From the NCBI GenBank assembly GCA_963707385.1, contig CAVPPK010000002.1, positions 354,673 through 418,672 of the forward strand: a DNA stretch of 64,000 nucleotides. Direction: 5' to 3'. The position numbers were made by a program, and so were the translations under genes. Under the pieces are notes generated by a model, which was given only the letters and a program-made list of their open reading frames with translations, ran no database searches and was not told the DNA's origin. The stretch comes from an uncultured bacterium (GTDB taxonomy: Bacteria; Actinomycetota; Actinomycetes; S36-B12). This document shows positions 887-62,477 of the stretch, piece after piece. Position 1 is the first letter of the stretch, and the number at the start of each line of letters is the position of its first letter.

Positions 887-1001
887 GCACGCCTCCGTGA
901 AGAGTTTGGGAAGGGGCTACTTACCGTAGTCCGAATGCAGTAACATGCCAACCCTGACTTCGGCACGAGTCGTGCCCGACACCTCACGAGATGGGAACAC
1001 C
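887..1001. promoter_or_regulatory. Divergent promoter region (ferredoxin operon / SDR) carrying the island-wide AT-rich box
   Basis: AT-enriched spacer in a ~70% GC context. ttaccgtagtcc (921-932) is the reverse complement of GGACTACGGTAA. cagtaac lies at 938-944. Confidence 0.45.
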
Positions 1002-1766
1002 ATGGATCTTGGTCTCTCGGGCAAGCGCGCCCTCGTTACCGGCGGCACCCGCGGCATCGGCCGCGCGACCGTCGAGCTGCTGGCCGCCGAGGGGGCGTCC
1101 GTCGCCTTCTGCGCCCGCAACGCCGAGGCCGTCGAGGCCTTCGCCGAGGAGCTGCGCGGCCAGGGCGTCACGGTGTTCGCCCGCGCCATCGACGTGAGCA
1201 AGGAGGACGAGCTCAAGGGCTTCATCCGCGACGCGGCCGAGGCGCTCGGTGGCCTGGACATCCTCGTGAACAACGTCACGGGCGGCTCGCTCAAGGGCCC
1301 GGAGCAGTGGCAGCAGAGCCTGGAGCTCGACCTGCTGCCGCTCGTGCACCTCATCGACGAGGGCACCCCGATCCTCGAGGCGGCCGGCGGCGGATCGATC
1401 ATCGCGCTGTCGTCGACCTTCGGCTTCGACAACGTGTGGCCGAGCTCGCCCAACTCCTACGGCGCCTTCAAGGCGGCCATCGTCCGGCACGCGTCCGCGG
1501 CCGCCCAGGCGCTCGCGCCGAAGGGCATCCGCGTCAACACCGTCTCGCCCGGTCCCGTCTACTTCGAGGACGGCGACTGGGGCAAGATCAAGGCCGGTCG
1601 CCCCGAGGTCTACGAGAAGGTCCTCGGCTCGATCAAGCTGGGCCGCATGGGCAAGCCGGAGGAGGTGGCCGCGGTCATCGTCAGCCTCGCCAGCCCCGCG
1701 TTCGGCTACTGCGTCGGCACCAACGTGGTGTGCGACGGCGGCATGACGGTCCGCACCCAGTACTGA
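1002..1766 (+). CDS. SDR family oxidoreductase, intact
   Basis: MDLGLSGKRALVTGGTRGIGRA (TGxxxGIG Rossmann motif), NNV, SSxxxx..YxxxK (YGAFKAA). Single frame. The upstream part of ORF 945-1766 is unlikely to be coding. Confidence 0.9.
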   Translation: MDLGLSGKRALVTGGTRGIGRATVELLAAEGASVAFCARNAEAVEAFAEELRGQGVTVFARAIDVSKEDELKGFIRDAAEALGGLDILVNNVTGGSLKGPEQWQQSLELDLLPLVHLIDEGTPILEAAGGGSIIALSSTFGFDNVWPSSPNSYGAFKAAIVRHASAAAQALAPKGIRVNTVSPGPVYFEDGDWGKIKAGRPEVYEKVLGSIKLGRMGKPEEVAAVIVSLASPAFGYCVGTNVVCDGGMTVRTQY

Positions 1767-1784
1767 TCCGCACCCGATCCTGCC

Positions 1785-2619
1785 GTGACCGAGGAGGCGC
1801 AGCGCATGCCACGTCCGGCGCGCTGCGCCTCCTCGCGCATCGACGTCGCCCTCGTCGTCGGAGGGCGCTGGCACGACGTGGACTTCGCCCGGCTCGAGCT
1901 GCTCGACCTGCTCGCCGAGCACGACGCCGTGCGGTGCACGGTGCACTCGGACTTCTCCGAGATCGACGTGCTGGCCGCCGCCGACGCCGTCATCGCGTAC
2001 ACGTGCGACGTCCGACCGTCCGCCGAGGAGGCGGTCGTCGCTCGCCGAACGCCGTCCGCAGCGGCACGCGACTGCTGGCGCTGCACGCGACCAACTCGGC
2101 GATCGACCCGCCCGCCGACGGGCGGACCGCGACTCTTCCGCACCCCGGACGCGATGCCGGAGTTCACCGCGCTGCTCGGCAATCGCTTCCTCGCGCACCC
2201 GAAGATCGCGCCGGCGCGCATCGACGTCGTGCGTCCCAAGCATCCGCTCGTCGCCGGCGTGCCGCCGTTCGTCACGACGGACGAGGTGTACGTCCTGGCG
2301 CTTCGCGACGATCTCGACGTCCTCCTCGACACCGAGTTCGCCGGGGAGTGCCCCGGGTTCGAGGTCTCCCACAGCGGGCCCCGCACCCGGCATCCCGTCC
2401 TCTACACGCGCGACGAGGGCGCCGGGCGGGTCGTGTACTTCACGCTCGGCCACTGCCGGGGACGGTTCGACGTCGTCCGACCTCGGGGTCGCGGACCTCG
2501 GTGTCGTGGACCGCGTGGCGTGGGAGTCGCCGGAGTACCGCGAGGTCCTGCGGCGGTGCATGGCGTGGGCAGTGCACGGTGAGAGGTGGCAGGAATGCCC
2601 GGTGGAGGAGAGCGCATGA
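1785..2619 (+). CDS. ThuA-domain (trehalose-utilisation-like) protein; frame interrupted about 3 times
   Basis: IDVALVVGGRWHDVDFARLELLDLLAEHD..., LLALHATNSAIDPP (other frame), FLAHPKIAPARIDVV...VYFTLGHCRG, then DLGVADLGVVDRVAWESPEYREVLRRCMAWAVHG (third frame). The stop overlaps the next ATG (ATGA at 2616-2619). Confidence 0.7.
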
Positions 2620-3376
2620 GCAGCAGGGGAACCGCAGTCGTCACGGGAGCGGGGCAGGGCATCGGTCGGGCGATCGCGGAACGGCTGGTGGCGGACGGGT
2701 ACGACGTGCTCGCCCTCGACGTCGACGCCGGGACCCTCGCCGACGTGGGTGCGGCCCTCGGCTGCCGGACGGCCGTCGTCGACGTCACCGACGATGCGCG
2801 CCGTGGCGGCAGTGGCCGGCCAGGCACCGGAGTGCCGCGTGCTGGTCAACAATGCCGCGATCCAGCGCTACCAGGACCTCCTGCACACCACGCACGACGA
2901 GATGCGCACCGTGCTCGACGTCAACGTCATCGGCCCCGTGCTGATGGCGCAGGCGCTGGTGCCCGTGATGGCGGCCAACGGTGGCGGCGTCGTCGATCAA
3001 CCTGTCGTCCATCACGTCACGCGCGCACGCGGCGGCGACCTCGCTGTACCCGGCATCGAAGGCGGCGGTGAACCAGCTCACCGAGGCGATGGCGGTGGAG
3101 TTCGCGCCGATGGGCGTGCGCTGCAACGCGGTCGGGCCGGGCACCGTCATCACGGAGGGCACGGCCGGGCACTACGGCGACGAGGGCACGCGCGCCGCCA
3201 TCGCCGGTGTCCTGCCCGTCAACCGCATGGGCCAGCCCGAGGACATCGCGAACGCCGTCAGCTTCCTGTGCTCCGACGAGGCGTCGTGGATCACCGGTCA
3301 GACGCTCTTCGTCGACGGCGGCTACACCGCCGCGCACGGCTCGTTCTTCCGCTCGGCACGAAAGGCACCTCGATGA
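2616..3376 (+). CDS. SDR family oxidoreductase; frame interrupted near 2800 and 2990
   Basis: MSSRGTAVVTGAGQGIGRAIA, LVNNAAI, INLSSITS...YPASKAAV, RCNAVGPG, WITGQTLFVDGG. Pieces lie in ORFs 2586-3071, 2749-4512 and 2981-3376. Confidence 0.8.
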
Positions 3377-5940: not shown

Positions 5941-5996
5941 GAGTGCGTAGTTGTGGCCCGTTTCGGGCCGGCCACAGCGGCCACAACTACGCACTC
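5941..5996. terminator. Bidirectional stem-loop between convergent genes
   Basis: Perfect 18-bp inverted repeat GAGTGCGTAGTTGTGGCC (5941-5958) / GGCCACAACTACGCACTC (5979-5996). It lies between the phosphatase (+) and SDR (-) stops. Confidence 0.7.
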
Positions 5997-7358: not shown

Positions 7359-7442
7359 GGGGCTCCTTCGGGAGGTGGATCGTGGGCATCGGATTGTAGG
7401 AAATCCTTGCAATAACTGTAGTGACTGTCTAGTTTCTCTGTC
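7359..7442. promoter_or_regulatory. Divergent promoter region with composite box; candidate leaderless start for 7443
   Basis: TAGGAAATCCTTGCAA (7397-7412), CTGTAGTGAC (7416-7425), TGTCTAG (7426-7432). The -10-like TAGTTT (7430-7435) ends 7 nt before ATG 7443 and there is no SD sequence. Confidence 0.5.
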
Positions 7443-7895
7443 ATGCCTTTGACACTCGAGCAGATCACGGACCGGATCGAGATCGACGAGCTCCTCGCCC
7501 GCTACTCGCGGGCCCTGGACTTCCGGCACTTCGACGAGCTGGAAGGGATCTTCACTCCCGACGCCGAGTTCGACGCAGGAGGTCTCGGCCATCCGCACGG
7601 TCCGGCCGCCATCCGGGCGATGATCGAGGGGACGATCGGCGGCCTCGACGCCACCCAGCACCTCGTGGGCAAGAGCATCATCGAGTTCGGCGAGGACGGG
7701 AACTCGGCCGAGGTGCGCACCTACCTGATCTCCCAGCACATCCGGGAGTCGGCGCCCGGGCCCGTCAAGCACTACTTCCTCGGCGGGGAGTACTTCGATC
7801 GCGTCGTCCGGACCGCCGACGGCTGGCGGATCGCCTTCCGTCGCCTCGACCGGATGTGGAAGCAGGGCGACCGGGCCGTCATCTCGGCCACCTAG
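7443..7895 (+). CDS. NTF2/SnoaL-like (SnoaL_4) protein, intact
   Basis: 150-aa single-frame ORF. ITDRIEIDELLARYSRALDFRHFDELEGIFTPDAEFD...HLVGKSIIEF... is typical of the NTF2-like family. Confidence 0.85.
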   Translation: MPLTLEQITDRIEIDELLARYSRALDFRHFDELEGIFTPDAEFDAGGLGHPHGPAAIRAMIEGTIGGLDATQHLVGKSIIEFGEDGNSAEVRTYLISQHIRESAPGPVKHYFLGGEYFDRVVRTADGWRIAFRRLDRMWKQGDRAVISAT

Positions 7896-7942
7896 GCGCT
7901 ACCGTCCTCCCGCACCCCACCGAACTACTGCAGCACGCCCAG

Positions 7943-9711
7943 ATGAGGAGCACCATGGACACCTGGATCGCCGACACCGAGCCGAGCGAGCGCTTCCCGA
8001 TCTACACCCGCGCCAACGCCGACGAGGTCGGCCCCGACCCGTTCACGCCGCTGAACTGGACCCTCACCTGGGAGCAGGGGATCGTGCCCGGGAACGGCCG
8101 ACGCGTGGATCGCGCTCGGGACGTTCGAGCCGGACGAGTTCCTCTGGACCAAGCCGGAGACCTACGGCTCCTGGGGCGGCTACTTCTACAACCAGGTGTC
8201 CCTCGGCCGGGTGTTCGGCTACCGCATGCCGGGGGCGACGCCCGACGCCATCGACATCTCGTTCTTCGGCCAGAACCCCACGGTGCCCGCCGTACGTCCA
8301 CGATCCGCGCGACGACAACGAGGCGTGCTCGGCGAAGCTGGGCGAGTCCTTCGGCGCGATCCTCGGCGGGCGCTCAGGAGGCGCTCTCCGCCGACTACCT
8401 GGCGCAGGCAGCCGCAGTGGCGGGCCAGCCGGCCGGACCTCGCGGCCGATCACCGACGCCGAGCTCGTCGAGTACGGCCGCACCTCGGCGCGGTGGCAGC
8501 GCCCGGGCTGGGACGCCTACGCCCAGGTCGTCATCGGCGCCACCGTCGGTCCGCAGATCGTGCAGGGGATCGCCGAGGCCGTCGGCAAGCCGGAGCTGGC
8601 CATCCAGATCTTCGGGGCACTCGGCGACGTCGCCTCGGCGGGCATGTCCGGAGCGGGTCTGGGACCTGTCGCGCCTGGTCCGCGACTCGCGCGGAGCTGA
8701 CCGCGGCCTTCGATGCCGGCGTCGAGGGTCTCGGCCGACCGGCTCGCGCGCCGAGCCCGGCAGCGGCGGAGTTCAACGCCGCGTTCGCCGACCTGCTCGA
8801 GACGTTCGGGCATCGCGGCGTCAACGAGTGGGAGATCAGCGCCGACACCTGGCTGATCAACCCCACGCTGGCGTACCAGATGATCGACCGCGTGCGCCGG
8901 CAGGACGACGCGAACGTCGCCGACGCTGCGTGCCGCCGAGTCGGCCACAGCGCCGGGAGGCCGCCGTGGCGGAGCTCACCGCCGCGGTCGCGGGCGACGA
9001 GGCCACCGCCGGCCTGCTGGCCGCCGGCATCGCCGTCCGGCCAGTCGTCCTACCGGCTGCGCGAGGCGGGCAAGAACGCCACGGTCATGCTCATGCAGGA
9101 GCCCAAGCTCGCGTTCCGCGAGCTCGGCCGCCGGATGCACGAGCGCGGCCACCTCGTCGACCCGATGCACGTGTTCCAGCTGCTCGAGAGCGAGCTGGAC
9201 GGCGTTCCTCGCGGATCCGGCGTCCTTCACCGACACCCTCGCCTCGCGGCACGCCGCAGTGGCTCACCCTCGCCGAGCTCGAGCCGCCGTACCTCGTCAT
9301 CCGCGACCGGCCGATCCCGCCGATCAGCGAGTGGCCGAAGCGCCGCCGGTACGTCCGAGGGCGAGGCGGCCGCCGTCGGGCACCGAGATGAAGGGCATCC
9401 CCGGCTCGCAGGGCACCGTCACCGCTCGCACCCGGGTCATCCTCGACCTGGCCGACGCCGACTCCCTCGAGCCCGGCGAGATCCTCGTCTGCACCACGAC
9501 GGACCCGTCGTGGGTGCCGCTGTTCATGATCGCCAGCGCGGTCATCTGCGAGATCGGCGCGCAGGCAAGCCACGCGGTGATCGTCAGCCGCGAGCTCGGC
9601 GTCCCGTGCGTCGTCTCGCTGGCCGGCGCGAGCAGCATCGCTGCCCGACCGGGCACCCTGGTCGAGCTCGACGGATCGACGGGCGCCGTCACGGGTCGTC
9701 GAGACGGCGTG
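7943..9711 (+). CDS. PEP-utilizer 'mobile domain' (swivelling phospho-His) protein, paralogue 1, no ATP-grasp; at least 8 frame interruptions
   Basis: N-terminus MDTWIADTEPSERFPIYTRANADEVGPDPFTPLNW matches paralogues 2 and 3. C-terminus GIPGSQGTVTARTRVILD...EPGEILVCTTTDPSWVPLFMIASAVICEIGAQASHAVIVSRELGVPCVV. Probable end ...VVETA with TGA at 9709-9711. Confidence 0.75.
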
Positions 9712-10427
9712 ACGGTCAAGCCACCGCCCACGCCGCCCGAGCCGCCCTTCTCCGTCCGGTACCCCTTCCTCCTCCTCGAGGAGGAAGGGGTCACCCGGCT
9801 GACGATCGTGCGGCACGCGCAGCAGGACTATCCGACGGACGACGAGTTCGACCACGCGGCCTGGGCCGACCCGCCGCTGAGCGGCCTGGGTCGCACCCAG
9901 GCGATGGCGCTGTCGGCCGTGCTCGGCGAGCAGGACGTCGACGTCGTCGCCTGCAGCACGATGCGCCGCGCCATCGAGACGGCGGAGATCGTCGCCTCGC
10001 CGCATGGCGCTGACGCCCGTCGTCCGGCCCGAGCTGGTGGAGATCCAGTCCTACCGCGACCTCGAGGAGGGCGTCGATCCGCAGACCCTCGTCGACCCGG
10101 CGGAGTGGGCCGCGCGCGAGCAGGCGTTCTACCGGCAGGCTGATGTGGGACCACATGTTCTTCAGCGAGGGCTCTGCCGAGTTCCGTGCGCGTGCCGTCG
10201 GCGCTGTCGACCGCCTCGTGGCCGACTACTCCGGGCAGCACATCGTGCTGGTGAGCCACGGTGGCGTGATCAACGCGGTCATCGGCGCCATCCTCGGGAT
10301 CGAGGAGGACATGTTCTTCCTGCCGAACCACTGCTCGATCAGCTCGGTGTGGATCAAGGGCGACGTGCGCCGGGTGCACTCCGTCAACGAGCGCCAGCAC
10401 CTGCACGTCGGCATCCTCACGAACTGA
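9708..10427 (+). CDS. Histidine phosphatase family protein (1 of 3); frame interrupted near 10000 and 10140
   Basis: GTG overlaps the upstream stop (GTGA). RLTIVRHAQQDYP (RHA variant of the RHG motif), PPLSGLGRTQA, LVSHGGVINAVIG. Pieces lie in ORFs 9259-10143, 10004-10495 and 10143-10427. Confidence 0.7.
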
Positions 10428-10433
10428 CCACGA

Positions 10434-11213
10434 TCAGGGGAGCAGGCCGATCTCGCGGGCGCGAACGACCGCCGCCTCGCGGTCGCGCACGTTGAGGAAG
10501 CTCATCAGGCGCATGAGGTCCTTCTTGACGGTGGACTCGGAGTACTGCAGCGCCTCCCCGATCTCGCGCGCCGAGCGGCCCTGGGCCACCAGCTCGAGGA
10601 TGCGGACCTGACGATCGGTGATGCGCACGTGCGGGCTCGGCTCGGGCAGCGGATGCCGGGCGCGGGAGTGCTCCGAGACCTGATGCATGTAGAGCCAGAG
10701 CGCAAGCGCCGCCGCGGTGCCCCGCAGCTGCCGGTCCTCGGCAGTCGTCAGCTCGGCGCGGGGAGGGGTGTGCACGCACAGCACCCCGATGGGCAGCCCC
10801 TTGACCGCCAGCGGCACGGTGATGATGAACGGCGGCTCGCCGGCCGGGGTGCGGATGGCCTCCTGGAGGATGCGACGCTCCTCGTCGGCGAACCAGCCGC
10901 CGGAGGTCGCGCCGGACCGCATGATGATCCGGTTCTCCCGGAAGGTGCGGCACGTGGTGAGCGGCGCCGCGACGGAGATCGAGCTGTACTTCTGCCACGT
11001 GACGTCGGGCATGCCGAAGGCGCCGATCAGGGCCAGCTCCTCCGGAACGGGTGCCTGGTAGACGGCGGATGCGGTGGCCGCCAGCGCGCGTAGCGGCCCG
11101 TGCACGACGGCCAGCGCGACGTCGTCGCCGCTCGGGTTGGCGCACAGGAACGACAGGAACGCGGCGGCGCCGTCGGAGAACTGGCCCTCGACCCCTGGCT
11201 GCTCGTCCGGCAC
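10434..11213 (-). CDS. LuxR-family transcriptional regulator with an N-terminal GAF-like sensor domain, intact
   Basis: 259-aa ORF. C-terminal HTH ITDRQVRILELVAQGRSAREIGEALQYSESTVKKDLMRLMSFLNVRDREAAV. Confidence 0.85.
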   Translation of the reverse strand: MPDEQPGVEGQFSDGAAAFLSFLCANPSGDDVALAVVHGPLRALAATASAVYQAPVPEELALIGAFGMPDVTWQKYSSISVAAPLTTCRTFRENRIIMRSGATSGGWFADEERRILQEAIRTPAGEPPFIITVPLAVKGLPIGVLCVHTPPRAELTTAEDRQLRGTAAALALWLYMHQVSEHSRARHPLPEPSPHVRITDRQVRILELVAQGRSAREIGEALQYSESTVKKDLMRLMSFLNVRDREAAVVRAREIGLLP

Positions 11214-11302
11214 GCCACGAACCTAGCCGAACGCCGGGTATGACCGTTCATGAACTGCGCGGGCCGTGGCGACGGACCGTCCAACCTCCCTACCGTTGGG
11301 GC
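11214..11302. promoter_or_regulatory. Divergent LuxR / Rieske-1 control region
   Basis: Perfect 10-bp palindrome GTTCATGAAC (11246-11255) and GGACCGTCC (11274-11282), the latter related to the island-wide GGACGTCC core. Confidence 0.4.
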
Positions 11303-12511
11303 ATGACCGACACCGTTCCCCAGTACCGCGCCGGCGCGCACACCGCGATGAGCCGCGAGGAGGCCCTCTCGATCCTCGACCGACTGGTGGGCCATCTGCG
11401 CAACGGCACGACCGACATGGCGCCCGAGCAGATGGAGATCCCGATCTCCTACTACCTCGACCAGGAGCTGTGGGAGCGCGAGATCAAGGAGATCTTCCAC
11501 GCCATCCCGCTGCCGGTCGGCACGTCGGCGGAGCTCGCCGGCGTCGGCGACTACAAGACGATGCGGGTGGTGGGCAAGGAGATCATCCTCGTGCGCGGCA
11601 AGGACGGGCGCATGAACGCGATGCTCAACGTCTGTCGTCACCGGGCGATGAAGCTGCTTCCCGACGGCTGCGGGAGCTCGCGCCGCTTCACCTGCTCGTA
11701 CCACGCCTGGACGTACGACACCGATGGCAGGCTGACCGGCGTCCCCGGCGAGGACACCTTCGGCGACGTCGACAAGGACGACTACAGCCTCGTTCGGCTG
11801 CCGTGCGAGGAGCGCGCCGGCTTCATCTTCGTCGGACTGACCCCCGGGATGGACCTCGGGATCGACGCCTGGCTCGGCGACGTGGCGCCGTACCTCGAGG
11901 CCCTCGAGCTCGACAAGTGCACGCACTTCACGACGAAGACGCTGCCCGGGCCCAACTGGAAGGTCACGCTCGACGGCTACCTCGAGGGCTACCACTTCAG
12001 CGCGCTGCACCCGAACACGGTGGCGCTGACCAACCACACCAACCGCATGACCTTCGACCGCTTCGGCCCGCACGTCCGCAACGTGTTCGCCCTGAAGACC
12101 CTCGACGCGATGATGGAGACGCCCCGCGAGGAGTGGGATCCGGCTGCGGCCATGGGGCTCGTGTACTGGATCTTCCCGGGCATGTCGATCGCCGGCGGCT
12201 GGCGCGAGCGCACGGTCGTCTCGATCATCCTGCCGGGCGACTCGTGGGGGGAGTCGATGACGTGGCAGACGACGCTTCTGCGCACGCCGCCGCAGACCCC
12301 GGAGGAGCTGCTCGAGGCGGAGAAGACGGCCGAGTGGTTCTTCGCGGCCTTCCGCGACGAGGACTACACGGCCCAGGCCGACGTCCAGAACGGGCTCGCC
12401 TCGCTGGCGGACAAGCACATGATCATCGGACGCAACGAGATCGCCGTCCAGCACGCCCACGAGACGGCGCGGCGGCTGCTGGCGGGGGAGCCCGTCCACG
12501 GCCCTCGGTAG
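11303..12511 (+). CDS. Rieske [2Fe-2S] non-heme-iron oxygenase alpha subunit (alpha-only type), paralogue 1, intact
   Basis: CRHRAMKLLPDGCGSSRRFTCSYHAW (CxH...CxxH), iron site NWKVTLDGYLEGYHFSALHPNT. 402 aa in one frame from ATG 11303. No beta-subunit gene follows. Confidence 0.9.
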   Translation: MTDTVPQYRAGAHTAMSREEALSILDRLVGHLRNGTTDMAPEQMEIPISYYLDQELWEREIKEIFHAIPLPVGTSAELAGVGDYKTMRVVGKEIILVRGKDGRMNAMLNVCRHRAMKLLPDGCGSSRRFTCSYHAWTYDTDGRLTGVPGEDTFGDVDKDDYSLVRLPCEERAGFIFVGLTPGMDLGIDAWLGDVAPYLEALELDKCTHFTTKTLPGPNWKVTLDGYLEGYHFSALHPNTVALTNHTNRMTFDRFGPHVRNVFALKTLDAMMETPREEWDPAAAMGLVYWIFPGMSIAGGWRERTVVSIILPGDSWGESMTWQTTLLRTPPQTPEELLEAEKTAEWFFAAFRDEDYTAQADVQNGLASLADKHMIIGRNEIAVQHAHETARRLLAGEPVHGPR

Positions 12512-12611
12512 GCGTTAGTGGTGGCCATCTCCACAAACTGAGTGGTCATCCCCCCGACGGGGATGGCAGACTCTCGGGCGTCCTGCCCCCCATCACTGAA
12601 TGGACGTCCAC

Positions 12612-46476: not shown

Positions 46477-46490
46477 GTCCCAGAGGTGCA

Positions 46491-47841: not shown

Positions 47842-47890
47842 CCGTCACCGCTCGACAGCGTCGCAGAAGCATGGACGACCAATTTTCTGG

Positions 47891-47930
47891 TTTCCATTGA
47901 CGGACTCCAGTAACTGGTGTGAGATGACCC
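47891..47930 (+). promoter_or_regulatory. Box upstream of the SDR / paralogue-3 / reductase operon
   Basis: TTGACGGACTCCAGTAAC (47897-47914). It combines a -35-like TTGACG with the GGAC..CAGTAAC box. Confidence 0.45.
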
Positions 47931-48764: not shown

Positions 48765-48847
48765 GCCGAACCCTCCTGCGCCGCCGGTCACCCTCGGGTG
48801 CCGGCGGCGCACGGATGTCCGCACCCGAATCGAGAGAGGACCGAACC

Positions 48848-51606: not shown

Positions 51607-51646
51607 CTGGGAAGTCCTTGCAAAAGTCGTCTAGACAACTGTACGG
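51607..51646 (+). promoter_or_regulatory. Composite box upstream of Rieske-5
   Basis: CTGGGAAGTCCTTGCAA (51607-51623), followed immediately by AGTCGTCTAGACAACT (51625-51640), which is palindromic in 14 of 16 positions. Confidence 0.55.
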
Positions 51647-54967: not shown

Positions 54968-55029
54968 GTTGAGTGTGCAGTTGTTGGGGGCTCGACATCG
55001 TCGACGACCCCAACAACTGCACACTCAAC
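54968..55029. terminator. Bidirectional stem-loop between convergent operons
   Basis: Perfect 22-bp inverted repeat GTTGAGTGTGCAGTTGTTGGGG (54968-54989) / CCCCAACAACTGCACACTCAAC (55008-55029). The arm sequence resembles the 5941 hairpin. Confidence 0.75.
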
Positions 55030-55495
55030 GGGTCAACTTGCGGAGCGGCCGATCGTCGAGCTGCCGCTGAGGATCAGCCGCTCGTTGGCCAGCCGCACGC
55101 TGCAGCAGCGCCTCGCCCTTCTCGATGAGGGCGGCGTTCCGCTGGTCCATGACCAGGTCCATGGCGGCCGTGAAGGCGTAGCCCGCGCGGGCGTACTCGG
55201 CTGCCACGTCGGCCAGCAGGAGCGACTCGGTCGGCTGCAGGGCGTCGAGCCTCGCCTGCACGGTGGCGTCGCCGGTCGCCGTCGCGACCTCCTGCGCGAA
55301 CTCCCCGTAGAGCGCGATCTCCTGCTTCATCAGGGAGATCTCCGCCGCGCTGGCGTTCGCGGCGCTGTTGAGCGTCGCGATGAGCATGTGCAGGCGGATC
55401 TGGGCGGCGGGGTCGGTGATCCCGGGCATGACGTCGCGCATGAGCTGCTCGCAGACGTCCTCGAGGATGCGCGGGGTCGACGGTCGCGTGATCAC
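55025..55495 (-). CDS. Hypothetical helical protein translationally coupled to APH-type kinase 2
   Basis: GTG 55495 overlaps the kinase stop (GTGA). VITRPSTPRILEDVCEQLMRDVMPGITDPAAQIRLHMLIATLNSAANASAAEISLMKQEIALYGEF. Single frame. I recognise no family. Confidence 0.5.
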   Translation of the reverse strand: MITRPSTPRILEDVCEQLMRDVMPGITDPAAQIRLHMLIATLNSAANASAAEISLMKQEIALYGEFAQEVATATGDATVQARLDALQPTESLLLADVAAEYARAGYAFTAAMDLVMDQRNAALIEKGEALLQRAAGQRAADPQRQLDDRPLRKLTR

Positions 55496-56500
55496 TGGGA
55501 CGCCTCCGGTGCGTAGGGGAGCTTCAGGGCGATGTTCAGGTACAGGTCGTGGAAGTGCGCGGCGGCCGGGAGCAGGAACGGGCCCATCACGCCGCGGTGC
55601 TGGCCCTCGGCGACGTCCTCGAAGCCGCGCAGGATGTCCTCCACGAGGTGGATCGTGCCCAGTAGGAGGAAGTACTCGGTGATGGCGGGATTGACCTGCT
55701 CCTCGGTGAGGCCCGGTCTTCTCCCGGTAGAGGGCCAGGAAGGCCTCCGGATCCGGGTAGTACAGGTGAGGCGGCATGGGGATCTGCAGGTAGTAGCCGA
55801 GGTCGAGGCGAGGATCGCCGATCTTGGCGAACTCCCAGTCGATGATGTGCGGTTCGACACCCTCGGACAGCAGGAAGTTGCCCGGCTGGAGGTCCCCGTG
55901 GACGAGGGCAAGCGGTACCTCGGGCGGGATGTTCATGCGGATCTTCTTGACCGTGTAGGCGAGGATCGGATCCGGCTCGCCGAGGTTCTCCAGGATCCGG
56001 TCGTAGATCGCGATCACGCTGTCGATGTGCGCCCGCCAGCTCGCCGGCCGCTCGATCCCAGGATCGATCTTGTCGAGGGGAGTCGTGTGGGCCGACGCGA
56101 TGATGCTGACGAAGTCCTCGCGGGACTGGTCGAAGTCCGGGCCGCCGTCCAGGTACTTCTGCATCGACGTCGACTCGATGGCCTCCGACACGATGCACTT
56201 GCTGCCGAGGTACTCGCCCGTGGCGTCGTACCACCGCGGCCGGGGGATGCGGAAGTCGTCGAGGTCCTTGATCGCCTGCAGCAGCGCCCACTCCTGATCG
56301 CGATCGCTCCGGAAGACGCTCATGTCCTCGGGCGGGTCGCCACGCAGGACGAAGGCCTCCCGCGTCCCGTCGGCCCACTGGACCTCGGCGCGCACGGTGT
56401 CACGGCTGTAGCCGCCGGGGATCGGATCGGCGCTGAGGACGGTGGCGCCACGCTCGGGCTCGACGACGTCGAGGAACGACTGGAAGCGATCGATGTCCAC
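55492..56500 (-). CDS. APH/ChoK-fold kinase 2; one frame interruption near 55700
   Basis: GTG start with GGGAGA RBS. Brenner motif LVHGDLQPGNFLL, IIDWEFAKIGDPRLDLG. The C-terminus (LTEEQVNPAITEYFLLLGTIHLVEDILRG...) lies in ORF 55492-55911. Confidence 0.8.
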
Positions 56501-56536
56501 GGATCTCCCTATGCCTCGTGCGGGCGGTAGCTCAGG

Positions 56537-57013
56537 TCAGTAATGGTCGCGCGTGCCGCGCACGGTGTGCGGGCGCTTGGCGAAGTACTCCTCGGCGGTC
56601 GGCTCGGTGCGCGTCCAGTCGACGACCTCGGTCCGATGCGTGATGAGCCAGCGACCACCGCGGCGAGCGTAGCGATCGATGTACCGCCCGCAGATGAAGC
56701 GGTCGAATCCCTCGGTGGCGTGCTGGTGGAAGGCCTGGAAGTACACCTCGCCGGTGGCGGTGTCGCCGTCGATGGCGAGGTTGATCTGGCCGAGGAAGTG
56801 CTGGGTCGCCTGGTATGCGCCGAGCGCCCGCATGGCCATGTCCGGCATCTCGTCGGCGCCGCCGCGGAACGAGCCGTAGTGCGTCGTGGCGTCCTCGGAG
56901 AAGACGGAGCGGACGAGGGCGGGATCCAGCCGGTCGAGTCCGCGCATGTAGGTCGCCGCGAGGCCACGCAGCTCGTTCTCGTCGAGGAGGAGTCGCAGCG
57001 CAGGATCGGTCAT
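56537..57013 (-). CDS. NTF2/SnoaL-like protein, intact
   Basis: MTDPALRLLLDENELRGLAATYMRGLDRLDPALVRSVFSEDATTHYGSF...HFLGQINLAI...RWLITHRTEVVDW. The ATG overlaps the upstream stop (ATGA). Confidence 0.85.
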   Translation of the reverse strand: MTDPALRLLLDENELRGLAATYMRGLDRLDPALVRSVFSEDATTHYGSFRGGADEMPDMAMRALGAYQATQHFLGQINLAIDGDTATGEVYFQAFHQHATEGFDRFICGRYIDRYARRGGRWLITHRTEVVDWTRTEPTAEEYFAKRPHTVRGTRDHY

Positions 57014-58138
57014 GGTGCCAGCACGCATTCGAGGTGGCCGAAGCCGCGGTCCGACGGATCGTCGAGGTTCACGCAGATGGCGAAGTTCTCGGCCCAGGCG
57101 TCGGGCCGCTGCTGGAACCAGCCGGCCGGATCGCCGACGTCGACCGGATGGGACACGTCCCACACCTCTCCTTCGTGGTGGTCGTCGCCGCGGTAGACCC
57201 CGCGGCCCTGCCGGTCGGTGAACCCGTCGTGGTAGCCGCCGCCCTGGAGGTAGACGGGGGAGCCGACGGGCGTCAGCTCGTACCGGTCGACGGTGCCGTC
57301 CGGGCGGGTGAAGGTGACGCGGGTGCTGGTGGCGCGGGGGAGGCCGTCGACCCGGGTGGCGTCAGCGCTGACATCGACGTACGACCAACGCGGCTGTGTC
57401 GGGTCGAGCGGGATGACGATCGACTCGGGGGCGTCGAACGAGCCGTCCCCCTGCTGGTGGAACTGCCAGAACATCACGCGATCGGGCATCCGGATCATCG
57501 TCCACTGGCGCATGGCGAATCCCCGGCGCGGGTCGCGCGTCGTGTCCGGGGCGATCGCAGCCGAGGGCCCGCCTCCGGTGCGACCCATGCCCCACGAGTG
57601 ATCGCGCACGCCGACCCACGAGTCGGGAGTGACGGTGAGCGTGCGGCCGTCCACCGTGATCGACCCGGTGACGGCGCAGCACTGGTCGAAGTTGGTCCTG
57701 TCGTAGACCTTCCGGCCAGCGGAGAACCGGACGATGCGGTCCTCGAGGTAGGGCTCGTGCAGCCCGACCCAGTCGAGGTCGAAGCTGATGCCGTAGGGGT
57801 TGTCGCCGCAGGTCAGGCGCAGTCGGGTGAGCGGCTCGACGATGTCCAGGCGCAGCGGCCCGACCTCGATGTCGTCGATGCGCGGACGCAGCCGCCGGGA
57901 CCAGCCGCAGGTTGTGCTGCCGGCCGTCGACCGTGACGCACGCGAAGCCGTCGATGACGTCGGTGTTGGGGTACAGCCGGATGGCGGCGAAGAGGGTGGC
58001 CCCGGTGGCCTCGTCTCCGAGAGTGAAGTAGAAGCCGTCGTTCCAGTGCACCGAATCGCTGACGACGGAGTCGAAGGTGCCCCCGACCTGGTGCCGCGGG
58101 TACTCGTCCATGCGCGTCAGGCGTCCGGGGTCGGTCAT
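57010..58138 (-). CDS. Conserved hypothetical protein (about 375 aa, beta-rich); about 2 frame interruptions
   Basis: MTDPGRLTRMDEYPRHQVGGTFDSVVSDSVHWNDGFYFTLGDE..., DDIEVGPLRLDIVEPLTRLRLTCGDNPYGISFDLDW, C-terminal ORF 57010-57654. No family assignment from memory. Confidence 0.5.
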
Positions 58139-58199
58139 GGCAGGAGCCTACCGCCATTGCGGCTAGTTATGAGACAAAATGTCCTATAGAGTTCGGCTC
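58139..58199. promoter_or_regulatory. Divergent control region (57010 operon / epimerase-kinase-TetR operon)
   Basis: AT-rich. AGTTATGAGACAAAAT (58165-58180) is related to AGTTATCTAGACAACT at 46517. Confidence 0.4.
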
Positions 58200-59202
58200 A
58201 TGAAGACCCTCATCCTCGGTGGCAGCACGTTCGTCGGTCGGCGCATGGTCGACCTCCTCGCCCGGGAGGGCCACGACGTCAGCGTGCTCAACCGCGGGAA
58301 GACGGCGTCCAGCCTGCCGCCGGGCGTGAGCCGCATCGTGGGCGACCGCACCAGCACGGAGTCGATGCGGGCCGCCCTCGCCGGCACGGAGTGGGACGCG
58401 GTCATCGACGTCTCCGGGTTCGTGATGGCGGCCGGCGGCGGCGAGTTCGAGGAGCTGCTCGGGCTGCTCGACGGCCGGGTCGGCGCCTACGTCTTCGTCT
58501 CGTCGATCATGGCCTTCGAGCCCAGCGGCATCATGCCCTGGCGGGAGGACGCGCCGACGACGTCGGACCCGGTCACCACCTACGGCGGCTTCAAGGCCCA
58601 TGCCGAGCGGGCGATCCTCGACCTGCACGCTGCCACCGGATTCCCCGGCTCGGTGGCTCGCCCGGCGGCCATCTACGGGCCCGAGAACAACATCCACGAC
58701 ATGGAGACGGCGATGTTCCTGCGGCTGCGCCGCGGGCTGCCGATCCTGCTCCCGCACGAGGGCCTCGTGACCACCAGCTACGGCCACGTCGACGACCTGT
58801 GCCGCAACCTCCTCGAGATGGCGTCGCTGTCCGGCGGCCGCGGGCGAGGTCGTCAACGTCACGGGCGAGGGTGCGTCGTCCCGGGCCTTCACCGAGCTGC
58901 TCGCCGACATCGCCGGTGTCGAGCCCGACATCCGCGTGCTGCCGACCGGCTTCACGGACGCCAAGCCGGTCTACGGCCATCTGTTCGGAGTGAAGCACCA
59001 CGGCATCCTGTCCGTCGCCAAGGCCGCGGACCTGGGCCTGACGGTCGAGCGCGGCATCCGTCGCGGCTACGAGGAGACCTACGCGTGGTTCTGCGAGAGC
59101 CCGCTCGTCGACGCCCCTGACGCGATGTCGGATCCGATGTGGGGAGCCGGCTACGACTTCGCCCTCGAGGCCGAGGTGGCCGCCGCCCTGCGGGCCGGGT
59201 GA
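58200..59202 (+). CDS. NAD-dependent epimerase/dehydratase family protein; one frame interruption near 58845
   Basis: MKTLILGGSTFVGRRMVDLL (GxxGxxG), VFVSSIMAF, YGGFKAHAE (YxxxK), C-terminus YEETYAWFCESP... Confidence 0.8.
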
Positions 59203-60395
59203 TGGAGGCCCGCGTCCCCGAGACGGTGATCCGCGAGGCGATCGCTGCCGGGCTGGCCGACCCGTCGCTCGGCTCGGCTGAGCAGTGGGCGGCGGTCGAG
59301 GCGTACCTGCGACGGGCGCGGCCCGGATCCCTGGCCCGCTCGGCGGTCCCGCCTCGGCGCGGGGAGCGTGCCCGTGGCCGAGCTGCTCGGCTGGCTCTCC
59401 GACGACGTCGCCACCGCGGCGCCGCTGATGGGAGCGTTCACCAGCCATGACACGAGCATCGACCACGCCGTGGTCCTCGTCCCGGCCGCCGAGCAGGAGG
59501 TGCTCGCTCGGTGGCTCAGCGAGCGGGCGGGGGAGCCGGTCGAGGTCGTCAGCGCCAGCGTGATCGGTGGCGGGTTCTCACGACGGATGTGGCGGGCCAC
59601 TCTCCGCGAGGCCGGGGTCGAGCGCCGGGTGATCGTCCGCATCGAGCAGGGCGGCATGTTCGGGACGGACACGATCACGGAGGTGCGCACGATGCGCGCC
59701 CTGCACGCGGCCGGCTTCTCCGTGCCGGCGGTCGAGTCGGTGGAGGAGTCCGGGTCGGTGCTGGGCGAGCCCTTCTTCGTCATGGAGGAGGTGCCCGGCG
59801 TCGTGCGCCTGGACGACCAGGGACTCGACGACATCATCCGGTCCGTCGCCGACCTGCATCGGGTGCCGGTCACGGTGCTGGACGCCAGCGGGCGCACGTC
59901 GGAGCAGGTGGTGTCGGACAACATCGAGGGCTGGCGACGGATGTACCGCGCTCACTCGCCCGAGCAGCCACTGATCGAGCAGGGCGCGGACTGGCTGCAG
60001 GAGCACCTCGTGCCGACCGGCGCCGTCGGTGATCGTGCACGGCGACGCCGGACCGGGCAACGCGCTGTTCGATCCGGAGCGCGGCCTGACGACGATCGAC
60101 TGGGAGTTCGCGCACGTCGGCGATGCCGCCGAGGACTGGGCCTACCTCGCGCTCATCCGGGGACGGCGGATCATGGACGGCGACGCCTGGAAGGCCCGGC
60201 TGACGGCCGTCGCGGGCATCGACTACGCGCCGGAGCAGTGGCGCACGTGGCTGGCGTTCATGCACCTGCGCGGTGCGTGCGTGAACCTCAGCGCGCGCTC
60301 GGTCTTCGAGCGCGGACCCGCGCCGCACGGCGGACCAGCTCGCGATCGGTGTGGCCGTGCACCTGCGGTCCCTGTCGCAGCTGTCGGAGATCACC
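59202..60395 (+). CDS. APH/ChoK-fold kinase 3; about 3 frame interruptions
   Basis: The ATG overlaps the epimerase stop. GGGFSRRMWRATL, FFVMEEVPG, Brenner motif VIVHGDAGPGNALF, TIDWEFAHVGDAAEDWAY. The stop overlaps the TetR ATG (ATGA at 60392-60395). Confidence 0.7.
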
Positions 60396-60973
60396 TGCGC
60401 ATGACGGACGCACGGTACGAGCGCTCCCGTGCGGCGGTGCACGAGGCGGTCCGGTCCGTGCTCGTCGCCGACGGCATCGGCGGCCTGGCGCGTCGACCGG
60501 CTCGCAGCCGAGTCCGGAGTGTCACGCAGCACCATCTACCGCAACTGGCCGGACATGGCGGCCCTGGCCTGCGAGGTGTTCGAGGAGCTGATCGACCGCG
60601 ACGGCGATCGACCTCGGGCGGCGAGCCTCGCGCTGCCCTGCACCGACTACCTCGCGGACTACGCGAGGCGGTTGAACGACCCGACCTACACGGCGGTCCT
60701 CGTGGCGCTGATCGAGGGCTCGGCCCGCGACGAGGCGTTCGCGCGAGGTGCATCGGCCGCGCGTTCTCGCAGACCCGGTCGCGGGCCGGCGCGATCGTCC
60801 GCCGGGCGCAGGCGGACGGCGTGATCGACGAGGCGCTCGACGTGCAGCAGTGCGTCGAGGACCTGGTGGCGCCGTTCCTCTACCGCCGGCTCGTCACGCA
60901 GTCGCGCATCACGTCGCGCCAGGTCGACGACCTGCACGCCGCCCTCCTCCACCGCTGGTCCCCGACGAGTTGA
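60392..60973 (+). CDS. TetR-family transcriptional regulator; leaves frame near 60485 and returns near 60755
   Basis: HTH VDRLAAESGVSRSTIYRNWPDMAALA (frame of ORF 60429-60824). N- and C-termini lie in the frame of ORF 60029-60973. The stop TGA (60971-60973) lies inside the first GAGTTGACCC repeat. Confidence 0.7.
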   Translation, partial: HLRMTDARYERSRAAVHEAVRSVLVADGIGGLARRPARSRVRSVTQHHLPQLAGHGGPGLRGVRGADRPRRRSTSGGEPRAALHRLPRGLREAVERPDLHGGPRGADRGLGPRRGVRARCIGRAFSQTRSRAGAIVRRAQADGVIDEALDVQQCVEDLVAPFLYRRLVTQSRITSRQVDDLHAALLHRWSPTS

Positions 60974-61168
60974 CCCAGCATCTGGGCGAACTCTGCAGAA
61001 GTGGCCCAGCATCGCCCGGATTCTGTTGAGTTGACCCAGCCCCGTCGGGCGCAGGATCGTCGGCGGGGTCCGTGCGACCCGAGCGGGGTGGAATCCGCAG
61101 ATGGGCGGGGATGCTGGGCCACATCTGCAGATCTCGCCCAGCATCTGGGTCAACTCTGCGAAGCGGGG
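60967..61168. repeat. About 200-bp non-coding element with ~47-bp terminal inverted repeats (GAGTTGACCC family, largest copy); MITE/REP-like
   Basis: Left end gagttgacccagcatctgggcgaactctgcagaagtggcccagcatc. The reverse complement of the right end is gagttgacccagatgctgggcgagatctgcagatgtggcccagcatc. An internal third GAGTTGACCC lies at 61028. Confidence 0.7.
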
Positions 61169-61592
61169 CTAGGGCTCGAGGGAGCGCTGGCGGGCACCCT
61201 TGTCGTGGTAGTCGTACTCGGCCGCGACCTTGAGGCCGTCGAAGACCAGGAACGACAGGCCCGGCACGCTCCACTTCCTCCCCAGGTGGCCCGCGACCCA
61301 TGGAGTCGTCGATGACGGTGGCGCTCATCTCCCACTGCAGGGCCAGGCCGTCCGGGCGCGCCCAGAACTCGCCGGTCGGGGCCAGGACGAGGTCGGGGTA
61401 GCGCTCGAGCCCGTGGCCGAAGTACTCGCGGATCGCCGGCCAGCCCTCCTTGAGGCCGCCGACGCTGTCCCACAGCACCGGCTCGTCGGTCAGGTGCTGA
61501 CGCGGTGCGTCGACGTCGCCGCTCGACCAGGCGGCGAACAGCGCCGTGGCCACCTCGATGCGGGCCAGGTCGGTCTCGTCGAACGTGCTCAT
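61169..61592 (-). CDS. NTF2/SnoaL-like protein; one frame interruption near 61300
   Basis: MSTFDETDLARIEVATALFAAWSSGDVDAPRQHLTDEPVLWDSVGG...LALQWEMSATVIDDS, then ...GLSFLVFDGLKVAAEYDYHDKGARQRSLEP with the stop at 61169-61171. Confidence 0.65.
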
Positions 61593-61627
61593 GGGACTCC
61601 TCGGGTCGGTGGGTCGGGCGACGGGGA

Positions 61628-62384
61628 TCAGCCGGACAGGTAGGTGCCGCCGTTGGCCGTGACGACCTGGCCGTTGACGAAGCCCGCGGCCGGCGACGCG
61701 AGGTAGGCGACCAGGCTCGCGATCTCGTCCGGGGTGCCGGGCCGTCGGGCGGAGATGCCGGCCAGCAGCCGCTCGCGCCGCTCGGGCGTGATGCGACCGG
61801 CCGAGCAGCTCGGTGCCGTCGGTGAATCCCGGAGAGACGACGTTGCTGGTGATGCCGTCGGCGCCGAGCTCGCGCATCAGGGTGATCGCGTAGGTCTCGA
61901 GCGCGCCCTTGGCGGCGGCGTAGGCGGGGCTGCCGGTGCCGAGCTGCGCGGCGAACGAGCCGATCATGATGACGCGGCCACCGGGGCGCGCGAGCAGGTC
62001 CTTCAGGCCCTCGGTGACGAGGACGGCGCTGAGGGTGTTCGCCCGCCAGGTGCTCTCCCACGCCGACGCCACCGACGCCAGCCCGCCCTCGATGCGCGGC
62101 TGCGGCGAGCCGGCGTTGTTCACGATCACGTCGACCTGGGGGAGCGCCTCGTGCGCCCACCCGACGAACTCGCTCACGGCCGTCACGTCGGTGAGGTCGA
62201 CCGATCGGCAGTCGACGACAGCGCCGGGGTGGGAGAGCGCCAGCGAGGCGGCCACCGCCTCGAGGCGGTCGGGGCGACGGCCCACCAGGACCAGTCGCGT
62301 GCAGGAGTCGGCCAGGGCCGCGGCCACCGCGGCGCCGATGCCCGTGCCGCCCCCCGAGACCACGGCGATGCGGGTAGCGGTCAC
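61628..62384 (-). CDS. SDR family oxidoreductase; one frame interruption near 61800
   Basis: RIAVVSGGGTGIGAAVA, VNNAG, IGSFAA...YAAAKGAL, C-terminus IASLVAYLASPAAGFVNGQVVTANGGTYLSG. Confidence 0.8.
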
Positions 62385-62477
62385 GCGGGCCTCCGTGCGC
62401 TCGATTTACTAGGACGTCCGTATACATGACGACCAACGACACGTTACTCTGACACCACCCACTTCGGAGGAGTTCTC
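62385..62477. promoter_or_regulatory. Divergent control region (SDR operon / thiolase)
   Basis: TTTACTAGGACGTCCGTATACATGAC (62405-62430), nearly identical in its first 15 nt to the box at 24827. GGAGG RBS precedes GTG 62478. Confidence 0.5.

Follow-up and report, generated by a model that had tools for sequence, protein, structure and literature searches.

The DosR (DevR) box of mycobacteria is a NarL/LuxR-family palindrome around GGGACTTTAGTCCC, and the binding sites of GerE-type dimers are typically palindromes of 18 to 20 bp. For KstR (Rv3574), the TetR-family repressor of the steroid and lipid catabolism regulon in mycobacteria, 16 further motif instances were reported in M. tuberculosis and 31 in M. 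smegmatis, and the extended KstR sites read ACTAGAAC-GT-GTTCTAGTT (Kendall et al. 2007, PMC1995591). The dre consensus of DasR is a 16-bp sequence, A(G/C)TGGTCTAGACCA(G/C)T (PMC4398421). Here, we analyzed 64 kb of contig CAVPPK010000002.1 (positions 354,673 to 418,672 of the forward strand; hereafter, the window), a catabolic island from an uncultured actinomycete, and an 18-bp near-palindromic sequence, designated the primary box, that precedes many of its operons. As judged from sequence comparison, the box is a new conserved motif in uncultured actinomycetes, predicted to be an operator of a familiar kind, on which two further predicted operator types are layered.

A conserved 18-bp box in island promoters

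A seven-state GC-frame hidden Markov model resolved the whole window (GC content of ∼70%) into long same-strand coding blocks and 24 non-coding spacers, and Pfam was run on the frame-corrected translations. De novo motif search by expectation maximization (EM), allowing zero or one occurrence per sequence (ZOOPS) in 19 promoter-bearing spacers (2.7 kb), returned one 18-bp motif, A(G/T)TT(A/G)C(A/T)(A/T)GGAC(G/T)TCC(N)A, which can be written as the near-palindrome T-R-C-W-W-G-G-A-C/G-T-C-C-W-W-G-Y-A (the slash marks the dyad). Its log-likelihood ratio was 101.4, compared with 61.6±4.0 (maximum, 70.6) in 22 dinucleotide-shuffled sets, and the top 18 hits of the position weight matrix (PWM) in the window (11.2 to 23.4 bits) were all non-coding, while the best coding hit reached 10.1 bits. 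Because the PWM had been trained on the window, a leave-one-out test was performed, with the two paralogous solute-binding-protein spacers held out together; the same sites were recovered, with p values of ≤0.01 in 9 of the 19 spacers and ≤0.05 in 12 of them. Moreover, all-versus-all comparison of the spacers gave 19 pairs that agreed at 15 or more of 18 positions (∼5 expected), and these pairs formed separate groups.

The symmetry of the box was evident at several levels. Self-complementary positions numbered 6.1 of 13 on average (3.3±1.6 in shuffles), the left and right half-site matrices correlated at 0.65, and the pooled half-site was T-R-C-W-W-G-G-A-C adjoining the dyad. The symmetric core WWGNACGTNCWW was found three times versus 0.11 expected, and the exact GGAANNCCTTGCA trio was far above chance. 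The core GGACGTCC on its own was not enriched in the window (5 versus 4.5 expected), and a perfectly palindromic version of the box had no counterpart among the real sites. With respect to the downstream gene, the box was found in either orientation.

Nine sites passed the leave-one-out test and were kept in relatives. They lie in the promoters of the ABC transporter operon, both solute-binding protein genes, the 2-oxoacid dehydrogenase/ThuA pair, the PPDK-like operon, the SnoaL/Rph-kinase and PNPOx/SDR pair, two Rieske oxygenase operons, and the SDR/thiolase pair, as follows:

7397 to 7414, minus strand: primary box TATTGCAAGGATTTCCTA; leave-one-out p=0.0025
17926 to 17943, plus strand: primary box CGATAGTAGGACTTCCTA; p=0.0025; upstream of a gene for an unknown 204-aa protein and the PPDK-like operon
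21250 to 21267, minus strand: primary box AGATGCAAGGTCTTCCAA; p=0.0025; covers the TTGCAT -35 in front of the ABC transporter operon
24826 to 24843, plus strand: primary box ATTTACTTGGACGTCCTA; p=0.0025; divergent ThuA/E1-E2 dehydrogenase spacer
36543 to 36560, minus strand: primary box ATCTACATGAACGTCCAA; p=0.0025 (paralogous spacer held out); upstream of solute-binding protein gene 1
38079 to 38096, minus strand: primary box AAGTACATGCACGTCCTA; p=0.005; upstream of solute-binding protein gene 2
46484 to 46501, plus strand: primary box AGGTGCATTGACATCCGA; p=0.015; over the -35 of the second Rieske oxygenase promoter
51608 to 51625, minus strand: primary box TTTTGCAAGGACTTCCCA; p=0.0025; over the TTGCAA -35 of the Rieske/TIM-barrel/SnoaL/SDR operon
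62404 to 62421, plus strand: primary box ATTTACTAGGACGTCCGT; p=0.0025; divergent SDR/thiolase spacer

Three extra variant or lineage-specific sites (47865, 39301, and 11239) bring the total to 12 across ∼20 promoter spacers; the compressed variant at 39301 is described with the second family below, and the other two are:

47865 to 47882, plus strand: weak lineage-specific match AGAAGCATGGACGACCAA; p=0.0125; ∼35 bp upstream of a second-family element
11239 to 11255, unstranded: half-site variant palindrome TATGACC/GTTCATGAAC; LuxR/Rieske divergent spacer

The nearest start codon lies 16 to 97 bp from the verified boxes. Because the genes downstream are mostly non-homologous to each other according to Pfam, the likeness of the boxes was not inherited by gene duplication. 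Two additional EM sites were discarded, one (22924) inside a permease coding sequence and the other (992) overlapping an SDR start codon, neither being conserved as a box. Rfam covariance models at the gathering score gave no matches in the window.

To follow the box in relatives, 14 loci were retrieved by scanning species-representative genomes for the solute-binding protein, with an intact gene as the query, and nine more by protein look-ups (given below by numbers with the prefix L). The closest relatives were uncultured actinomycete metagenome-assembled genomes (MAGs), in which the island was syntenic over at least 66 kb, and the proteins in the compared genomes were 55 to 90% identical to those of the window. 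Complete relatives were represented by OZ257127.1 and OZ245718.1; the island spans 66 to 75 kb, lying at about 2,634,000 to 2,701,000 in OZ257127.1. L007 and L023 both belong to chromosome OZ245718.1, and L003 shares its chromosome with L002. Across nine spacers, identity to the window was 0.82 within the box versus 0.55 in the remaining spacer, and in eight of them conservation was higher in the box than around it (one-sided Wilcoxon p of ∼0.01), the exception being 47865 (0.37 versus 0.58).

Boxes 7397, 17926, 21250, and 24826 were near-unchanged in L007, L019, and L020. Box 7397 overlaps two promoter elements, the TTGCAA -35 for rightward transcription of the SnoaL/Rph-kinase operon and the start site for leftward transcription of the PNPOx/SDR operon; within this box, TAGGAAATCCTTGCAAT was invariant across four genomes, while box 17926 was identical at 18 of 18 positions in L007 and L020 and carried one change in L019. 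Box 21250 was kept in L007, L019, and L020 together with its TANNGT -10, and box 24826, the strongest and most palindromic (23.4 and 19.9 bits on its two strands), was kept in L007. Both solute-binding-protein boxes were present in nine loci, with GGACGT.CATGTA.TTT invariant. Farther right, TGCATTGACWTCC of box 46484 was kept in L004, L013, and L014; box 51608, which adjoins a TCTAGAC palindrome, was identical in L015 and read TTGGACGTCCATATAGTG in L017; and box 62404 was kept in L015, L017, and L016, with its core retained in the rearranged spacer of L016. The variant at 11239, sharing its half-site type and 9+9 geometry with the solute-binding-protein boxes, was kept in L019, L020, and L021, and its L019 counterpart was a perfect 18-mer, TTCATGAAC/GTTCATGAA.

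Other conserved sequences were observed around the solute-binding-protein boxes. The 5' leader of the solute-binding protein genes (GCTCGGGTTC...CCTCGACYGGAAGAGAGATCC-ATG; 38104 to 38144, with its paralogue at 36582 to 36597) was near-invariant in nine genomes, more conserved than the coding sequence, and can fold into a hairpin (CTCGGGT/ACCCTCGA) with a loop that differs among genomes; this leader, which had no Rfam match, could be a translational or RNA-stability element. GTGACC-N-GAAA words occur upstream of several boxes (38031 to 38065; 21234; 36500), including a tandem direct repeat of two copies of AGTGACCAGAA at 38044 to 38065. The CGTGAC word ∼45 bp upstream of the solute-binding-protein box was kept in nine genomes and was not conserved at 21234.

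The primary box is cluster specific and is no general promoter feature. At ≥12 bits, it was found in 13 of 17 promoter-type spacers in the window versus 0 of 12 non-cluster spacers sampled from non-syntenic DNA of the related genomes L003 and L010 (Fisher p=6e-5), which speaks against the genome-wide promoter element considered as a refutation in the initial annotation. In two complete chromosomes, the 9 kb flanking the island on its left had no primary box, and primary boxes continued rightward of the window (L015:14856 and L017:16519).

That annotation, made from the letters of the window, had described a single AT-rich box family in front of nearly every transcription unit. All 17 strings it quoted are present at their coordinates, and all the quoted sites lie in non-coding spacers with a GC content of 0.51 to 0.69 against the 70% background. 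A significant shared motif is also borne out by the log-likelihood ratio given above, but the sites do not form one family. TTTACTwGGACGTCC and GGAAnnCCTTGCA (TnGGAAnnCCTTGCA), listed as separate variants, are one near-palindromic box read from opposite strands, and the site at 11274 (GGACCGTCC) had no leave-one-out support and was absent from the closest relative. With nine robust and three variant or lineage-specific sites in ∼20 promoter spacers, the claimed occurrence before nearly every transcription unit was overstated. Likewise, for the proposal of one regulon over the 64 kb, a common cis-element does occur at about half of the promoter spacers, but at least two elements had been lumped together and the TCTAGAC palindrome had been missed.

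Second-family elements and dre-like palindromes

The sites initially written as GGAC-N3-6-CAGTAAC (47902, 41651, 36459/36480, 37975, 932, and 31125) and assigned to the same box represent a different element, with the core GTTTC-N13-CAGTA/AGTTACTGKAGTCCG. This bipartite pattern was found five times versus 0.37 expected, a count reached in 0 of 100 shuffles. When searched as a global ZOOPS motif with the primary sites masked, the second family was not significant (z=1.5); it was accepted on the basis of the bipartite pattern test and its orthologous conservation, being found at orthologous positions in 11 loci. Orthologues keep GTTTC and CAGTAA, while the GGAC between them is not conserved. Since the internal spacing is fixed and the distance to the -35 hexamer variable, the element is predicted to be a protein-binding site rather than a -35/-10 pair. 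The members, together with AGTTACTG-type sites and the compressed variant, are:

36448 to 36470, plus strand: GTTTC-N13-CAGTA, exact match; adjoins the acyl-CoA dehydrogenase start
41639 to 41661, plus strand: second-family element, exact match; GntR/SnoaL divergent spacer
47890 to 47912, plus strand: second-family element, exact match; upstream of the SDR/Rph-kinase/reductase operon; kept in L002, L013, and L014
16659 to 16681, minus strand: second-family element, exact match; short ADH/OYE-type spacer missed by the gene model
919 to 934, plus strand: AGTTACTG-type site ACTTACCGTAGTCCGA, 22 bits; second family without the GTTTC part; kept in L022 and L023
31112 to 31127, plus strand: AGTTACTG-type site AGTTACTGTACTCCGA, 23.4 bits; adjoins a dre-like half-palindrome (31130 to 31143)
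37973 to 37988, minus strand: AGTTACTG-type site AGAAACTGGAGTCCGG, 20.1 bits; weak orthologous match (L002:10319, 11.5 bits)
39301 to 39322, unstranded: 8+8 compressed variant TATCTTTACTTGACGTTCAGTA (TACTTGAC/GTTCAGTA); over the -35 of a Rieske oxygenase promoter

At 36448, GTTTC and CAGTAA were kept in 10 genomes and the intervening GGAC was not; at 41639, TAGTTWCTTTAG and CTMCAGTA were kept in eight genomes; and at 31112, AAAGTTACTGTA and CAAGTTGTGTAGTC were kept in six. The pattern at 16659 was repeated at L020:4774-4796 between the orthologous genes. The 22 bp of 39301 to 39322 were invariant in ten genomes. As a member of the primary box, this site was not significant (leave-one-out p=0.12); it matches GTTTC-N13-CAGTA with one mismatch and the primary box apart from two single-base deletions, and because of this near-match to both, it bridges the primary box and the second family.

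A related word, G(G)TTTCYTTAG, recurs and is kept in orthologues (17886 to 17910, 36447 to 36457, 41638 to 41649, and 47889 to 47899); the copy at 17886 has TATAAAT in place of CAGTAA 13 nt downstream. The word may belong to the second element or represent a site of its own. Left of the island, a conserved GGTTTC-TTGACTCACACTC-TAGTAAC element occupies the acyl-CoA dehydrogenase/CoA-ligase divergent spacer (L022:1700-1760 and L023:4490-4530) and adjoins a conserved TetR gene; with this element, the second family reaches beyond the primary-box region.

A third kind of site, AGTTGTCTAGACAACT (designated palindrome B), precedes three Rieske oxygenase genes, with three sites in the window versus 0.02 expected, and was kept before the Rieske orthologues in seven loci:

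45175 to 45190, unstranded: palindrome B AGTCATCTACACAACT; before the Rieske oxygenase gene at 45206; conserved in the alignment
46517 to 46532, unstranded: palindrome B AGTTATCTAGACAACT; at the -10/start site of the promoter of the Rieske oxygenase gene at 46577
51625 to 51640, unstranded: palindrome B AGTCGTCTAGACAACT; between the -35 and -10 of the promoter of the Rieske oxygenase gene at 51749

Both AGTTATCTAGACAACT and AGTCGTCTAGACAACT are one position off AGTTGTCTAGACAACT, a 16-bp palindrome with the core GT-N-TA-N-AC. Palindrome B fits as the predicted site of the HutC-type GntR protein encoded in the island.

Promoter overlap and candidate regulators

The boxes overlap promoter elements in several ways. 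Box 24826 lies between the -35 and -10 of a predicted promoter, TTTACT-16-TATAGT (24827 to 24854); box 46484 and the variant box 39301 lie over the -35 of TTGACA-17-CATAGT (46491 to 46519) and TTGACG-17-CAGAAT (39310 to 39338), respectively; and a leftward promoter predicted at 7444 to 7415 has its start site inside box 7397. In front of both solute-binding protein genes, the box spans the promoter spacer together with an invariant TAMTTT -10; boxes 7397, 21250, and 51608 lie over TTGCAA/TTGCAT, with TANNNT 16 to 18 nt downstream (assigned by eye, with conserved -10s). For the predicted promoters only, box centers range from ∼+5 to ∼-58 relative to the start. Because this symmetric site occurs at varied positions over the -35, spacer, -10, or start site, the primary box is most likely the operator of a homodimeric repressor.

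From the motif itself, its significance, symmetry, restriction to the cluster, conservation, and overlap with promoter hexamers, we infer a mode of action in which one homodimeric transcription factor would bind the nine conserved primary-box promoters and repress them by occupying the -35, spacer, -10, or start site. A pathway substrate or intermediate would then release the repressor, so that the operons are induced together. The HutC-type GntR protein on dre-like TCTAGAC palindromes would provide a second layer at Rieske oxygenase promoters, and the bipartite GTTTC-N13-CAGTA a third layer at about six promoters. We judge it probable that the island promoters are wired by at least three kinds of site in this manner, with the primary box serving as a repressor operator.

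Several observations weigh against a repressor operator. No regulator gene adjoins a strong primary box, the -35/-10 elements at 7407, 21260, and 51618 were assigned by eye and fall below the threshold of the promoter scanner, and several boxes contain a -35-like hexamer (TTGCAA or TTGACA), so that part of the arm signal could be promoter sequence. The box center near -37 in three promoters could also be used by a LuxR-type activator, and the primary box, the 8+8 variant at 39301, and the second family (with the same words 2 bp closer) could be read by one protein or several. At ≥12 bits, orthologous clusters carry the box in 1 to 3 of 6 to 11 spacers, below the window, partly because the PWM was trained on the window; and two boxes are not kept everywhere, 51608 being lost in L002 and 47865 in most loci.

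The window encodes three regulators, each of which had been listed as a candidate common regulator in the initial annotation, and a palindrome precedes the operon of one of them:

10434 to 11213, minus strand: LuxR-family regulator gene (GerE helix-turn-helix; Pfam and NCBIfam)
40808 to 41527, minus strand: HutC/PhnF-type GntR gene (GntR and UTRA domains by Pfam; best NCBIfam matches PhnF and HutC)
60401 to 60964, plus strand: TetR-family gene (TetR_N and TetR_C_11 by Pfam); last gene of the epimerase-APH-TetR operon
58168 to 58188, unstranded: palindrome TATGAGAC-AAAAT-GTCCTATA; promoter of the epimerase-APH-TetR operon; kept in L016, L017, and L018

None of them could be tied to the primary box: the GntR and TetR proteins each have a palindrome of their own that fits better than the primary box, and LuxR is missing in one genome that keeps the boxes. 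The GntR gene is kept in all seven syntenic loci, and the window TetR has syntenic orthologues in L015 to L018. The palindrome at 58168, whose half-sites are 5 bp apart versus 0 in the primary box, is probably the window TetR's own operator. LuxR has 16 close orthologues in the database and no more, syntenic in L019 and L020 and absent from L007/L023; the palindrome in the LuxR/Rieske spacer (9+9, perfect in L019) hints at LuxR autoregulation. Both complete chromosomes have another conserved TetR gene (L023:2614-3282 in OZ245718.1) at 7 to 9 kb leftward of the window. The primary-box binder may be encoded outside the window, for example by this leftward TetR gene, with somewhat less than an even chance. 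LuxR is a possible but doubtful binder, the window TetR an unlikely one, and GntR a very improbable one. The unknown 204-aa protein (17952 to 18680) was rejected as a hidden regulator since it had no Pfam, NCBIfam, or PDB support. In OZ245718.1, which lacks the LuxR gene, the island has gained two inserted genes (L007:9139-11140), one for a different TetR protein and one for an additional solute-binding protein; the latter gene is not preceded by a primary box, and the extra TetR, having no homologue in the window, was set aside as a candidate.

If the primary box were instead an activator site for a dimer of the LuxR/GerE-type protein (10434 to 11213), located over or just upstream of weak -35s and also autoregulatory, it would resemble the lux-type boxes at which LuxR and TraR recruit RNA polymerase. 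An 18-bp two-fold symmetric motif falls within the 18 to 20 bp of GerE-type sites, the LuxR/Rieske spacer palindrome has the same half-site and 9+9 geometry (a perfect 18-mer in L019), the LuxR orthologues (16 proteins) are syntenic and share the narrow distribution of the cluster, and three boxes are centered near -37 over imperfect TTGCAA/TTGCAT, as assigned by eye. However, L007/L023 keeps four near-identical boxes with no LuxR gene at the syntenic slot, and no LuxR orthologue was returned from OZ245718.1 in the database search, although this chromosome is in the database. Moreover, boxes over the spacer/-10 (38079 and 36543), between the -35 and -10 (24826), or at the start site (7397, leftward) would be unusable by an activator. 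Activation by this LuxR protein is therefore quite unlikely.

The initial annotation also proposed a dedicated alternative sigma factor, with the boxes as its promoter elements, given the TTGAC or GGAA words within some of them. In the same direction point the second-family GGTTTC word, which resembles the -35 of SigF/SigB-type promoters, and the fixed 13-nt distance between GTTTC and CAGTA. The primary box, however, is two-fold symmetric and present in both orientations; ordinary -35/-10 pairs are recognizable on their own, and their offset from the box is not constant; the -35 and CAGTAAC are separated by varying distances (3, 5, or 7 nt) while GTTTC and CAGTA are a fixed distance apart; and Pfam detected no sigma-factor domain in the window. 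Such a sigma factor is accordingly highly improbable. That no common regulator exists, the pattern arising from duplicated promoters, generic AT-rich composition, or post hoc pattern picking, is scarcely tenable and already largely refuted: the two solute-binding-protein spacers are indeed paralogous, as are the Rieske spacers of 45206 and 46577, the variable-gap consensus was permissive with GGACGTCC alone not enriched, and EM sites 22924 and 992 were false positives, but the motif survives dinucleotide shuffling and leave-one-out testing with paralogues held out together, most box-bearing operons start with unrelated genes, the likeness spans no more than ∼18 bp, non-cluster promoters of similar composition lack the box, and orthologues keep it better than the surrounding spacer.

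Returning to the repressor operator, the primary box, the 39301 variant, the second family, and the TetR-operon palindrome are built from the same words, TAGGAC/GTCCTA and GTTAC/AGTAAC, whose spacing differs by -2, 0, and +5 bp. It is conceivable, though improbable, that one regulator or a small paralogous set reads one half-site at several spacings and, together with the HutC-type GntR, forms a combinatorial operator code. If true, such a code would coordinate at least 15 operons of a 70-kb island that, in widespread uncultured actinomycetes, would degrade an unknown substrate.

The island and its closest described systems

According to Pfam, the island encodes five Rieske oxygenases, many SDRs, at least six SnoaL_4 proteins, three PEP-utilizer/Rph-type kinases, two APH kinases, His and Tyr phosphatases, a 2-oxoacid dehydrogenase E1/E2 set, a PPDK-like enzyme, ThuA, xylose-isomerase-like TIM-barrel proteins, an ABC transporter with two Peripla_BP_4 solute-binding proteins, a ChsH2-type OB-fold protein, thiolases, acyl-CoA dehydrogenases, and an aldehyde dehydrogenase. 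The phosphate enzymes, namely, the three rifampicin-phosphotransferase-like proteins (PEP-utilizer plus Rph_4th), the two APH-type kinases, two His-phosphatases, and two Tyr-phosphatase-family proteins, are interleaved with the five Rieske oxygenases and many SnoaL_4 proteins (7455 to 14160, 41696 to 45086, 47990 to 50443, and 55099 to 60392). This enzyme mix suggests a catabolic route via phosphorylated intermediates of an unknown substrate. No phage match was found for the window, and a plasmid origin was rejected because plasmid records gave weak matches to metabolic genes and nothing more.

The coding frame shifts every few hundred bases at a constant strand (e.g., 7895 to 10010, 24886 to 25860, and 60393 to 60964), and the frame-corrected translations of these genes still give full-length Pfam matches. 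Over 1,737 columns aligned with the intact L020 orthologue, 21 single-base insertions, many of them outside homopolymers, and no deletions were counted in gene 7895-10010; the window is thus an insertion-rich unpolished assembly (or a set of pseudogenes). Due to these ∼1% single-base insertions, most open reading frames are broken, and exact-protein look-ups of two window proteins gave no match.

In convergent spacers, repeated words GAGTTGACCCAG...CTGGGC occur at 35240, 60967, and 61028 and, in reverse, at 61145. These spacers (35240 to 35331 and 60965 to 61156; also 5944 to 5996, 54968 to 55030, and 63700 to 63760) contain long near-perfect inverted repeats with a common GAGTG(C/T)G(T/C)AGTTGT, which look like a REP-like or terminator family distinct from the promoter boxes.

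For a large conserved catabolic island known only from MAGs, these results provide a testable regulon map, comprising nine conserved predicted operator sites and, in addition, two other predicted operator types and four candidate regulators. As a tool, the box may serve to delimit the island and find further members in metagenomes, to identify the regulator and its inducer and hence point to the substrate of the island, and to supply a ligand-responsive switch.

Among described systems, DasR/NagR is the counterpart of palindrome B, which matches the dre consensus at 14 of 16 positions (PMC4398421, PMC4333415). As in a dre-type system, a HutC/PhnF-type GntR protein with a UTRA domain is encoded 3.5 to 10 kb from palindrome B in every syntenic locus, and palindrome B lies over the -10/start site or in the promoter spacer, as repressor sites do. 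Unlike in DasR/NagR, the targets are Rieske oxygenase genes instead of amino-sugar genes and the flanks are TTGT/ACAA versus TGGT/ACCA; the likeness concerns palindrome B only, and binding is predicted.

The DosR box shares with the primary box the GGAC/GTCC half-sites and a palindrome of ∼20 bp, which in DosR is read by a GerE-type helix-turn-helix dimer, and the second-family word GGACT-NN-AGTAAC shows the DosR half-site and spacing on one side. However, the DosR pattern GGGACTNNAGTCCC was not enriched in the window (one match with two mismatches, versus 3.8 expected, in a spacer without a box), and the primary box differs in having no gap between GGAC and GTCC and in preceding catabolic rather than dormancy genes. 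A literature search for a GGACGTCC operator gave nothing relevant, only an unrelated, retracted paper on a LacI-family protein.

The KstR regulon is similar in that one palindromic operator, bound by a dimer in the case of KstR, occurs at many operons of a large actinobacterial catabolic cluster. The KstR half-sites are one base off those of the primary box (ACTTGGAC/GTCCTAGTT), and the gene content of the island is steroid-like, with the ChsH2-type OB fold, thiolases, acyl-CoA dehydrogenases, and Rieske oxygenases. In contrast to KstR sites, the box, WWGGAC/GTCCWW, misses the two central bases, and no regulator gene here has the primary box in its own promoter, with binding and repression being predictions. 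The KstR core TnnAACnnGTTnnA had one match in the 64 kb, in coding sequence at 52317, and none in any spacer, and structure searches with the window TetR matched uncharacterized TetR structures (E of ∼1e-10), with no KstR chain among the hits. Since the core is absent from spacers and the TetR protein is not KstR-like, the island does not belong to the KstR regulon; it would rather work like one without being a member. Such a pathway-specific palindromic operator over promoters is a conventional design, as in the KstR, PaaR, and DasR regulons, and overturns nothing; its value lies in offering a handle on an unusual and unstudied catabolic island.

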